Assembly: GCA_963838385.1 (NCBI GenBank)
Contig: CAWIRE010000006.1
Coordinates: 556,796-620,795 of the forward strand
DNA from: an uncultured Alphaproteobacteria bacterium
GTDB taxonomy: Bacteria; Pseudomonadota; Alphaproteobacteria; ATCC43930; CGMCC-115725
Direction of reading: 5' to 3'
Length of the DNA: 64,000 nt
This document shows positions 11,909-13,095 of this stretch, one piece after another (the stretch's first letter is position 1; every line of letters starts with the position of its first letter). Under the pieces are notes generated by a model. It made no database searches and was not told the DNA's origin. It saw only the letters and a program-made list of their open reading frames with translations. The position numbers were made by a program, and so were the translations under genes.

Positions 11909-12298
11909 ATGGGATTACAGGTGGTGGCGGGGGCGCTGCTGCAATGCAGCTTCGGCGCGGCGCCGAGCTCGCTCAGCGTGCTGCCGGCCAACCGCACCAA
12001 TGCGGGCGGTCCGCCGGCGGCGAACATCATGGATTACGCGCCGATGGTCAACATCATGCCCTTCGGCATGTGCAGCAGCATCGCCAACCCGACGGTGGCG
12101 GCGGCGACCGCGGCGGCGCTGGGGGTGCTGACGCCGATGCCCTGCATCCCCAACACGGTGGCGCCCTGGGTCCCGGGCTCGCCCACGGTGATGATCGCCA
12201 ACATGCCGGCGCTCAACGACAGCTCGACCTGCATGTGCGCCTGGGCCGGCGTCATCAAGATCAACATGGCGGGGCAGGTCACGGTGCAGATCGCTTGA
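11909..12298 (+). CDS. DUF4280 (PAAR-like) protein
   Basis: VVAGALLQCSFGAAPSSLSV ... NIMPFGMCSSIANPTV ... PMPCIPNTVAPWVPGSPTVMIANMPALNDSSTCMCAWAGVIKINMAGQ follows the DUF4280 Cys pattern. GGAGGAGGGCGGAGG RBS. Confidence 0.85.
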   Translation: MGLQVVAGALLQCSFGAAPSSLSVLPANRTNAGGPPAANIMDYAPMVNIMPFGMCSSIANPTVAAATAAALGVLTPMPCIPNTVAPWVPGSPTVMIANMPALNDSSTCMCAWAGVIKINMAGQVTVQIA

Positions 12299-12366
12299 TG
12301 CGGTCAACGCAAAATTATAGAAGAAGACCCAGGGTTGTGCGCGTCGCGGCCGAAGGCGAGGAGTCC

Positions 12367-13095
12367 GTGAGCAAGCCAGTTCCCCCACCGCCGCGTCCGG
12401 GCGCCAGGCCTCCGGGGAGGCCGGCCGCGCCGCCGCCGCCACGCGGCTTCGCCGCTCATCCGGTGCGCGTGCCGCCGCCGCCGGTGGCGGGCCGCCCGGC
12501 GCCGGCCGGAACGGCGCAGCGCTTCGCCAGCTTCAGCAACCGCACCGCCGCCGATATCGGGCGCAAGGCGCCGCCCGGCGACGAGCTGGTGGCGCTCGGC
12601 CAGGACAATTTCGGCGCCAGGAGCGCGGCGCAAGGCCTGATCACCCGGCCCGACGGCACCTATAATTTCGTGCGCACCCAGGGGCTCAGGCGCATGGACC
12701 AGCGCACGCTGATCTCGGCCCAGGCGGGCCATGCCCAGCTGTCGCAGGGCAGGCCGGTGATCTATGCCGGGACGGTGCGCTTCAATGCCGGCGCGATCGA
12801 CTGGTGGAGCAATTATTCCGGGCATTTCCAGCCGATCGCCGCCTTCCGCCGCCAGGCGCAGCTCCCGGACGACAAGTTCGTCCCCTGGCAGAGATTGCAG
12901 CTGGGCGGCACCGCGATGCAGCGCGGCCTGTTCCGCGACCGTCGCCCGGCCGCCGGGCCGGAGCCACAGCAGAAGACCGAGCGGGCGCCGGCAGAGGCGC
13001 AATCCAGCGCGGCGAAGCCGGCGCGCCCGGAGAAGCCGGCCAGCGCACCCGCCGCCGCGGCGCGCGGCGCCGCGGTACCGGCCAAAAAAGGCTAG
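12367..13095 (+). CDS. Hypothetical proline-rich protein with an unassigned about 130-aa core; candidate T6SS cargo
   Basis: Directly follows the PAAR-like gene. Two starts are possible: GTG 12367 behind GGCGAGGAG, or ATG 12298 overlapping the DUF4280 stop (TGATG). N-terminus is PVPPPPRPGARPPGRPAAPPPP; core is ...GRPVIYAGTVRFNAGAIDWWSNYSGHFQPIAAFRRQ...; the tail is Ala/Pro/Lys-rich. No family recognised. Confidence 0.55.
   Translation: MSKPVPPPPRPGARPPGRPAAPPPPRGFAAHPVRVPPPPVAGRPAPAGTAQRFASFSNRTAADIGRKAPPGDELVALGQDNFGARSAAQGLITRPDGTYNFVRTQGLRRMDQRTLISAQAGHAQLSQGRPVIYAGTVRFNAGAIDWWSNYSGHFQPIAAFRRQAQLPDDKFVPWQRLQLGGTAMQRGLFRDRRPAAGPEPQQKTERAPAEAQSSAAKPARPEKPASAPAAAARGAAVPAKKG

Follow-up and report, generated by a model that had tools for sequence, protein, structure and literature searches.

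A standalone gene in a VgrG-linked secretion module of an uncultured alphaproteobacterium: a probable cargo effector with a toxin-type core of unrecognised predicted fold

Gene X and its place in a type VI secretion module

The DNA analysed here, called the window below, is a stretch of 64,000 nucleotides from an uncultured Alphaproteobacteria bacterium (GenBank assembly GCA_963838385.1, contig CAWIRE010000006.1, positions 556,796 to 620,795). It carries a co-oriented block of type VI secretion system (T6SS) genes in the order clpV-vgrG-MORN-DUF4280-X, where X stands for a gene whose product has no assignable family. Together with a DUF4157 gene, a gene for a 500-aa protein and a gene for a SPOR-domain membrane protein these are eight genes, and they form a satellite module without sheath and baseplate genes. 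Elsewhere the window carries housekeeping genes (GyrA, MFS, ABC binding proteins, histidine kinases). An initial annotation, made from the letters of the DNA, had described X as lying behind a PAAR-like DUF4280 gene, with a MORN gene upstream and a SPOR-domain membrane protein gene after it, and had proposed X as a candidate for a new T6SS effector. The neighbours are as described (Table 1), and comparative genomics supports the proposal through the carriers of related domains, their partner open reading frames (ORFs) and the T6SS linkage of X. We consider it likely that X is a cargo effector of the VgrG/PAAR-like (DUF4280) T6SS spike module and that its core is a toxin-type domain.

X is a real and conserved gene, far beyond what chance would produce, because its core (aa 71-216) as query returned 117 homolog clusters at E-values from 1e-28 to 1e-87, 24 columns are invariant in the alignment of the 118 X-subfamily sequences, and its third-position GC is typical for coding sequence of the host genome. 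The clusters derive from Azospirillum, Sphingomonas, Paracraurococcus and uncultured Alphaproteobacteria; every one is named hypothetical and none has a Pfam domain. In the list of ORFs the frame of X runs from 11944 to 13095 on the plus strand, with an ATG at 12298 and a GTG at 12367 in frame. The TGATG at 12296-12300 that had been pointed out at the end of the DUF4280 gene is there to be read, with the TGA stop at 12296-12298 and the ATG at 12298-12300. The GTG had been listed as an alternative start behind GAGGAG; this motif ends three bases ahead of it, and the GTG is now the favoured start. X almost certainly begins there, because the aligned starts of close homologs (MSKQFAPPP, VSKPVPPPP) fall on this codon and because third-position GC drops upstream of it, from 0.88 in 12367-13095 to 0.61 in the 69 AT-rich bases of 12298-12366. 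On the same two observations the ATG was rejected as start of X. The 69 bases are probably non-coding. With the GTG as start, the DUF4280 gene and X are set apart by a spacer of 68 nt, and the TGATG overlap is probably a coincidence. Residue numbers are counted from ATG 12298 (a product of 265 aa), with the leader from GTG 12367 beginning at aa 24.

From N- to C-terminus the protein comprises a disordered leader that is basic and rich in proline, a folded core of some 105 aa, and a conserved C-terminal extension with a low-complexity tail; the region of ordinary composition spans about aa 95-216. The polyproline N-terminus, the lack of cysteine and the Ala/Pro/Lys-rich tail noted earlier are all seen in the translation. 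Length and sequence of the tail vary among homologs. Within the extension W197, L200, G204, Q208 and R209 are invariant in the X subfamily.

A superfamily of C-terminal domains on polymorphic-toxin carriers

A profile built from the 118 X-subfamily sequences was searched against 1.84 billion representative proteins (clusters at 50% identity) and returned 700 representatives at E ≤1e-3, of which 157 reached E ≤1e-10. Conversely, X scores 123.9 bits with a hidden Markov model (HMM) of 76 distant members from which the X subfamily had been left out. Unrelated carriers repeatedly bear the domain at their extreme C-terminus: among 116 relatives outside the X subfamily, 93 have no more than 15 aa between the end of the domain and the C-terminus, and the same is true of 24 of the 31 distant relatives with at least 300 aa. 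Among the carriers are RHS-repeat/TcdB_midN/SpvB proteins of 1527-4148 aa, PT-HINT proteins, one PT-VENN protein and TPS-domain/haemagglutinin-repeat (FhaB-like) proteins of 3075-4137 aa, and in one case the Rhs-associated core (Rhs_assc_core) stands directly before the X-like domain. Other carriers have an N-terminal DUF4157 (eCIS_core) domain with the X-like domain behind it, and X-like genes also lie beside small DUF4157 genes. Because the core recurs C-terminally on RHS, PT-HINT, PT-VENN, TPS/FhaB and DUF4157 proteins, with a small downstream ORF behind three carriers, it bears the signature of a polymorphic-toxin domain. These comparisons support the placement of the X core in a large, unannotated superfamily of polymorphic-toxin C-terminal domains. 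Its members are found in Alphaproteobacteria, Gammaproteobacteria (including Escherichia coli and Pantoea plasmids), Acidobacteria and Gram-positive-like contexts. Over more than 110 relatives scanned, a Pfam or NCBIfam toxin family fell on the X-like segment in none, and the RefSeq names of members read only "hypothetical" or "RHS repeat-associated core domain-containing". No description of an X-type family was found in the literature searched, nor a matching motif in the supplement of the Levy-lab polymorphic-toxin preprint. Hence, the toxin family appears to be undescribed to date.

Further searches touched the spread of the superfamily. A word-indexed homolog search with distant members returned 14 proteins only. 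With the X core as tblastn query the PLSDB plasmids gave nothing, and a query with distant members retrieved the Pantoea RHS and the E. coli plasmid members. The former is an orphan RHS C-terminal cassette on plasmid pDSJ09 of Pantoea stewartii DC283 (WP_006120904.1, L054:4059-5264; L numbers denote loci). The latter, WP_063103634.1 (L055:3662-4273), is a standalone "hypothetical protein" of 203 aa from E. coli IncF plasmids; it was seen on 14 or more plasmids of this species, and an immunity-like ORF was not found adjacent to it. In the FhaB-like proteins P0184, P0243 and P0252/P0280 three to four diverged tandem copies of a segment H..L..G..V..AG....N.SGHY.P follow each other at distances of about 210-330 aa, in the C-terminal region of these filamentous-haemagglutinin proteins.

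Three of the carriers are followed, after 10-51 nt, by ORFs of 116-133 aa. These ORFs are homologous to each other (30-31% identity, E 1e-15 to 1e-19) and their products are helical, without signal peptide or transmembrane segment; a Pfam search with this small-ORF family gave no match. They are the probable cognate immunity family of the carrier-borne relatives, and their placement right behind the toxin-type domain is the usual arrangement of a toxin gene and its immunity gene. A cytoplasmic site of toxin action is suggested because this immunity family of RHS- and TPS-borne relatives has no signal peptide.

All residues conserved in the superfamily are kept in X. His145 is conserved in 100% of 77 diverse superfamily sequences and is at least 90% conserved or nearly invariant in our alignments A2, A4 and A5. 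Like His145, Gly158, Asn172, Ser174 and Gly175 are invariant or nearly so in the superfamily, and Pro179 is conserved to 99%. The YAG motif is kept with frequencies of 0.94 (Tyr), 0.97 (Ala) and 1.00 (Gly). Conservation of at least 90% extends to Tyr122, Phe124, Val125, Val154, Tyr156, Ala157, Phe162, Gly165, Trp170, Tyr177, Ala187, Leu189, Pro190 and Phe194. The C-terminal extension is missing from the RHS- and TPS-borne relatives, in which the domain stops at about ...F.PW. The isoelectric point (pI) of the domain has a median of 9.4 over 77 superfamily members and exceeds 8 in 56 of them. Because most family members are this basic, there is a weak hint at a polyanionic substrate, for example a nucleic acid or a nucleotide.

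The fold was predicted with AlphaFold2. A first model (aa 71-220, from the 118-sequence alignment) reached a mean predicted local distance difference test score (pLDDT) of 74.6, with 83-94 in the core; a second one (aa 88-205, from a more diverse alignment) reached a pLDDT of 89.6 and a predicted template modelling (TM) score of 0.82. The six predicted beta strands form a hairpin, two more strands and, after a short helix that starts from His145, a long hairpin with YAG and WWSN; an NxSGxYxP loop and short helices follow. The core had been called unassignable, and a confident match to a housekeeping family would have spoken against an effector. No family of Pfam-A, NCBIfam or PADLOC, and hence no named toxin, effector or defence family therein, is matched by X at a significant HMM score. 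Searches of PDB sequences with the single sequence and with two profiles returned noise alone (sulfotransferase 18 at E 2.2, binary-toxin-A-like at E 0.26). Foldseek against 350,542 PDB chains gave no match either, with best E-values of 0.44 for the first and 1.1 for the confident model and TM-scores of at most 0.34 (at most 0.32 for the confident model); against BFVD the best hit of one model had E 0.025 at a root mean square deviation of 10 Å. No solved fold in the PDB was matched by the models, including ADP-ribosyltransferases, double-psi beta-barrel (DPBB)/RlpA-like proteins, barnase/BECR RNases and cell-wall hydrolases. The predicted fold of the X core is thus unrecognised in the PDB and BFVD libraries. 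Three candidate families were rejected. A DPBB/RlpA-like fold had been suggested by the H..L..G..V pattern and the adjacent SPOR gene, and was dropped together with an H-Y-E ADP-ribosyltransferase and a 2H phosphoesterase; each has the wrong motif spacing and lacks structural or profile support.

Linkage to the spike module and the question of immunity

The genomic context was analysed in 42 X-subfamily loci with 10-kb flanks, from a scan of one genome per species, and neighbours were counted by tblastn with the window proteins (the 500-aa protein at E ≤1e-5). The loci include Rhodospirillales (Azospirillum, Niveispirillum, Magnetospirillum, Phaeospirillum, Stellaceae, Arenibaculum) as well as Sphingomonas, Pikeienuella and Paracraurococcus; cultivable carriers of X include Azospirillum soli CC-LY788, Niveispirillum irakense DSM 11586 and Magnetospirillum. 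At least one of VgrG, DUF4280, ClpV and DUF4157 lies within 10 kb of X in 37 of the 42, so that homologs are not found mostly outside T6SS neighbourhoods. Of the five loci that lack these markers, L037 and L042 lie at contig ends, L016 and L034 are true orphans, and L021 is an orphan X-SPOR pair. VgrG, DUF4280 and the DUF4157 protein are each present within 10 kb in 28 loci, the MORN protein in 22, ClpV in 20 and the SPOR protein in 17. The full order DUF4157-(460-570-aa gene)-clpV-vgrG-MORN-DUF4280-X-SPOR is kept in about 20 loci. A tblastn homolog of the 500-aa protein of the window was found in two loci only (L003, L006); elsewhere a 460-570-aa gene fills its slot, the likeness being one of position and size. 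The X gene of Magnetospirillum begins 2 nt behind vgrG, with DUF4280-tssK-tssL-tssM after it; the Phaeospirillum cluster runs hcp-tssE-tssF-tssG-DUF4157-vgrG-X; and in Sphingomonas X comes after tssF-tssG-clpV-vgrG. A Pyrinomonadaceae locus (Acidobacteria, L052) shares this set of genes and reads vgrG-MORN-DUF4280-SPOR-DUF4157-GNAT-511aa-Xlike-...-clpV. Judged by these neighbourhoods, X belongs with the VgrG spike module of a single T6SS lineage and not with DUF4280 alone. The suggestion that X sits in the position of cargo of a PAAR-like cap therefore stands as far as T6SS linkage is concerned, and fails in its specific tie to DUF4280, the linkage being to the VgrG spike module generally.

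The SPOR gene downstream of X leads to a different reading, namely that X is a cell-wall effector acting in the periplasm against which the membrane-anchored SPOR protein gives immunity. In the 17 tblastn-positive loci and, by inspection, in a few more, the SPOR gene comes next after X. Its start abuts or overlaps the X stop in L009, L010, L013, L014, L019, L021 and L025, Azospirillum and Niveispirillum among them, and L021 keeps the pair away from T6SS genes. The SPOR protein has a short cytoplasmic tail, one transmembrane helix and a periplasmic SPOR domain, which is the topology of immunity proteins to periplasmic toxins. However, at least 20 X loci, about half, are without SPOR, including those of Magnetospirillum, Phaeospirillum, Sphingomonas and Pikeienuella; in L052 the SPOR gene follows DUF4280, four genes from the X-like gene. 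The immunity family of the RHS- and TPS-borne relatives is soluble and signal-less, which points to a cytoplasmic target, and Foldseek gave no resemblance to cell-wall hydrolases. We hold periplasmic action with SPOR as immunity to be improbable. The distribution rather suggests that the SPOR protein is a component of the T6SS lineage, for example a peptidoglycan anchor, and not an immunity protein.

Within polymorphic toxin systems, proteins of the MORN_2/YwqK family carry annotations as antitoxins or immunity proteins, as in the YwqJ/YwqK pair, and the upstream MORN_2 (YwqK-like) gene had earlier been named as the one immunity-like neighbour of X. This background and the presence of MORN at 22 of the X loci would favour a role of the MORN protein as immunity protein of X. 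Its position tells otherwise: the gene always stands right after vgrG rather than beside X, it keeps this place where the X-like gene is five to six genes away (L046, L052), and it is missing from the vgrG-X loci of Magnetospirillum and Phaeospirillum and from the orphan X loci. MORN thus tracks vgrG and not X, and immunity by MORN is very improbable. Because it always follows vgrG, even with the X-like gene several genes off, the protein is suggested to be a spike-associated adaptor rather than an immunity protein of the YwqK type. As an observation on its spread, a MORN_2 protein lies directly after vgrG in Alphaproteobacteria, in the acidobacterial L052 (1875-2447, 40% identity) and in L046 (457-1221).

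Several points weigh against X as an effector with a toxin-type core. The statement that no small immunity-type ORF lies downstream of X proved correct, and a tblastn search for the small-ORF immunity family gave no homolog in the 64-kb window or in any X-subfamily locus. X is conserved about as well as VgrG (47-59% against 53-55% identity to Azospirillum), occurs in single copy and sits inside core clusters; antibacterial effectors, by comparison, usually diversify fast. Orphan copies without any partner gene exist (L016, L034), and neither fold nor sequence match hints at any chemistry. Finally, a catalytic toxin would not usually be expected in three to four tandem copies, as the domain is in the FhaB-like proteins; such an arrangement would suit a binding module as well. 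The absence of an immunity gene, the single copy and the tandem copies in these adhesins would suit a non-toxin, in which X has an accessory or structural role (at the spike, in regulation or as a kind of chaperone) in the T6SS lineage with DUF4280, MORN, DUF4157 and SPOR. Its synteny and moderate conservation across Alphaproteobacteria and even Acidobacteria, and its position between vgrG and DUF4280/tssK, speak in the same direction. A non-toxin is nevertheless difficult to reconcile with a domain that forms the last module behind Rhs core, PT-HINT and PT-VENN boundaries and, on three carriers, has a partner ORF, since in polymorphic toxin systems this is a position reserved for toxins. Also against it are the orphan X copies far from T6SS genes (L016, L021, L034), the standalone copies in a Gram-positive-like context and on IncF plasmids of E. 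coli, and the invariant polar His, Asn, Ser and Tyr, which are typical of an active site. We regard a non-toxin function as quite improbable.

With X as a cargo effector, the following course seems plausible. X would be co-expressed with clpV-vgrG-MORN-DUF4280, as synteny and the lack of a terminator-like site between these genes suggest. Its disordered basic proline-rich leader would dock it non-covalently on the spike, possibly via the MORN protein or DUF4280, and X would be fired into a neighbouring cell. There the core may act as an enzyme in the cytoplasm of the recipient, with His145, Tyr156, Asn172, Ser174 and Tyr177 as active-site candidates by their conservation. For the immunity-less subfamily either the producer lacks the target, which could for example be eukaryotic, or the toxin is inactive until delivery, or its immunity protein goes unrecognised. 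A more far-reaching proposal would see a new fold and a new toxin chemistry used by type V secretion systems (CdiA/FhaB-like), T6SS (RHS and VgrG-linked) and DUF4157-linked contractile injection systems, an X subfamily that is anti-eukaryotic or immunity-independent, and a proline-rich +xxPxxP/(V/I)QR leader, common to X and the neighbouring DUF4157, GNAT and ~500-aa proteins, that is read by a MORN adaptor on the spike; in this full form we find it doubtful.

The leader itself is recognisable across the subfamily. A basic residue and PPP occur within the first 45 aa in 64 of 107 full-length members, and the consensus is [KR][RQ]FAPPPxxWPG followed by (V/I)QR..(A/T)F. Disordered leaders rich in Pro, Ala and Gln are also observed on neighbouring DUF4157 proteins, a GNAT acetyltransferase and 460-510-aa proteins, and the leaders of X and its neighbours contain the motifs PPPTR[FY], RxFAPPP or (V/I/L)QR[KR]. 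The proline-rich leader may be a shared signal for cargo recognition or loading in this contractile injection lineage. A promoter and terminator scan of 10900-14300 gave nothing above shuffle expectation on the plus strand, and no terminator-like site was found on that strand between vgrG, MORN, DUF4280, X and SPOR. The sole terminator-like hairpin of the region (13090-13106) is on the minus strand and overlaps the X stop codon.

Relation to known systems, and neighbouring features

The type of system is known, namely VgrG-linked T6SS cargo with a polymorphic-toxin module, while its toxin domain is absent from Pfam, NCBIfam and the PDB. The X core is homologous to the terminal domains of polymorphic toxins (RHS C-terminal domains, those of CdiA after PT-VENN and those of PT-HINT proteins), and three of the X-like carriers share homologous small downstream ORFs. 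X differs in that it is standalone, has its own leader and an extra C-terminal extension and lacks an immunity-family homolog, and in that its domain matches no named Tox or Ntox family of Pfam and NCBIfam. With VgrG/PAAR-linked, adaptor-loaded T6SS cargo it has in common the place in a clpV-vgrG-PAAR-like block with conserved linkage. Here, however, the cap is DUF4280 and not a canonical PAAR protein, no immunity gene is adjacent, and the known adaptor families (DUF4123/Tap-1, DUF1795/Eag, DUF2169) are absent. The sole adaptor candidate is the MORN_2 protein, which, as far as we know, has no established adaptor role in T6SS.

Published work uses a fused or adjacent DUF4157 as a marker of contractile injection system toxins (PMC8213781; PMC11297309), and the DUF4157-linked toxins often come without immunity genes (PMC8213781). 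X resembles these toxins of extracellular contractile injection systems (eCIS), termed EATs (Geller et al., 2021; Danov et al., 2024), in that X-like domains are fused behind or adjoin DUF4157, that two thirds of the X loci (28/42) have a DUF4157 gene, and that (V/I/L)QR leader motifs are in common. In contrast to EATs, the machine is a T6SS (TssH and VgrG; TssE/F/G/K/L/M and Hcp in relatives) and not an eCIS, and X is without a DUF4157 domain. A further comparison is Tie2 (VPR01S_RS02375), an anti-eukaryotic effector of the Vibrio proteolyticus T6SS3 that is encoded inside the T6SS cluster without an immunity gene (PMC9545535). Its C-terminal region (aa 326-469) was reported to be like polymorphic toxin C-terminal domains, including those of DUF4157 proteins (PMC9545535). 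X is likewise T6SS-linked and immunity-less; the likeness is drawn from the published description of Tie2 only and is a lead, and the reported LXG and WXG100 carriers of the Tie2 domain were not seen among the scanned X relatives.

If X is indeed a toxin-type effector, a widespread toxin family of about 700 clusters at 50% identity would be added. Since its fold and chemistry are not recognisable, the family could lead to a cellular target or an enzymatic mechanism that is new. A T6SS lineage would also come to light with a DUF4280 cap, a post-VgrG MORN protein, DUF4157 and SPOR, whose cargo shares a leader motif and in which cargo selection becomes directly testable. The conserved form without immunity raises the question how the producer escapes its own toxin, or whether the target is eukaryotic.

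Table 1. Features of the window and of related loci (positions count from the first base of the window, or of the locus where a locus is named)
Feature	Coordinates	Strand	Evidence or remark
DUF4157 (eCIS_core, HExxH) protein with unannotated N-domain	2784..3854	+	PF13699, E 7.6e-28
500-aa helical protein	3893..5395	+	no family match
TssH/ClpV ATPase	6318..8993	+	TIGR03345, 1227 bits against a cutoff of 885
VgrG spike	8995..10989	+	Phage_GPD 9e-91, Gp5_trimer_C, Phage_base_V
MORN_2 repeat protein, directly after vgrG	10997..11677	+	PF07661, E 1.9e-15
DUF4280 PAAR-like spike cap	11909..12298	+	PF14107, E 8.5e-36; NCBIfam IglG-like 9e-16, below cutoff
Stretch from DUF4280 stop to probable X start	12298..12366	+	in frame with X; holds GAGGAG at 12358-12363
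Gene X, candidate effector	12367..13095	+	GTG start, 242 aa, stop TAG at 13093-13095
Basic proline-rich disordered leader, aa 24-94	12367..12579	+	begins VSKPVPPPPRPG, holds TAQRF motif; pLDDT <50
Folded toxin-type core, aa 95-200	12580..12897	+	six beta strands and short helices (predicted)
His145 codon (CAT)	12730..12732	+	candidate catalytic residue, by conservation
Tyr156-Ala157-Gly158 (YAG) motif, strand beta-5	12763..12771	+	superfamily conservation
WSNYSGHFQP loop, Trp170 to Pro179	12805..12834	+	candidate active-site or ligand loop
Subfamily-specific conserved C-terminal extension, aa 197-216, WQRLQLGGTAMQRGLFRDRR	12886..12945	+	conservation within subfamily
Ala/Pro/Lys-rich low-complexity basic tail, aa 217-265	12946..13092	+	alignment; pI 10.2
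Bitopic membrane protein with periplasmic SPOR domain	13154..13978	+	PF05036, E 5.4e-8
Patatin phospholipase	14098-15120	-	CBASS
CD-NTase	15264-16460		CBASS
Cap2 E1/E2	16420-18132		CBASS
Cap3 JAB	18108-18641		CBASS
IS1595/ISXO2 transposase	18760-19716		after CBASS
133-aa ORF	L049:9600-10001		16 nt downstream of Fontisubflavum oceani RHS protein (WP_290151466.1)
116-aa ORF	L050:5800-6150		51 nt downstream of 674-aa carrier
130-aa ORF	L051:13239-13631		10 nt downstream of 3075-aa TPS/FhaB protein; ShlB-type transporter upstream of carrier
N-termini with proline-rich leader motifs	2784-3854 and 12367-12579 (window); L043:623-2005; L045, L046, L047, L052

The DUF4157 protein of the window (HELAH) is probably a second cargo, or a loader, of the same module. 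It has an extra N-terminal domain at about aa 21-150 with the motif GHSFV...RRQCSTFA, and the two halves occur in opposite order in the Azospirillum homologs. By this His/Cys hydrolase-like motif the protein may be a second effector. Pfam searches with the N-domain, the 500-aa protein and other neighbours gave no match. The stretch of about 920 nt between the 500-aa gene and clpV (5396-6317) holds no ORF that survives a filter on codon-position GC; the equivalent gap in Azospirillum soli measures only about 90 nt.

The SPOR gene is immediately followed in the window by a complete type II cyclic oligonucleotide-based antiphage signalling system (CBASS) at 14098-18641, and a transposase gene comes next. 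In L004 and L006 a pentapeptide-repeat gene, which in the window lies at 21241-22701, comes directly after SPOR, and in L002 the same transposase is found at this place. Judged by these junctions, some 7 kb with CBASS and the insertion sequence element seem to have been inserted where the T6SS module ends.

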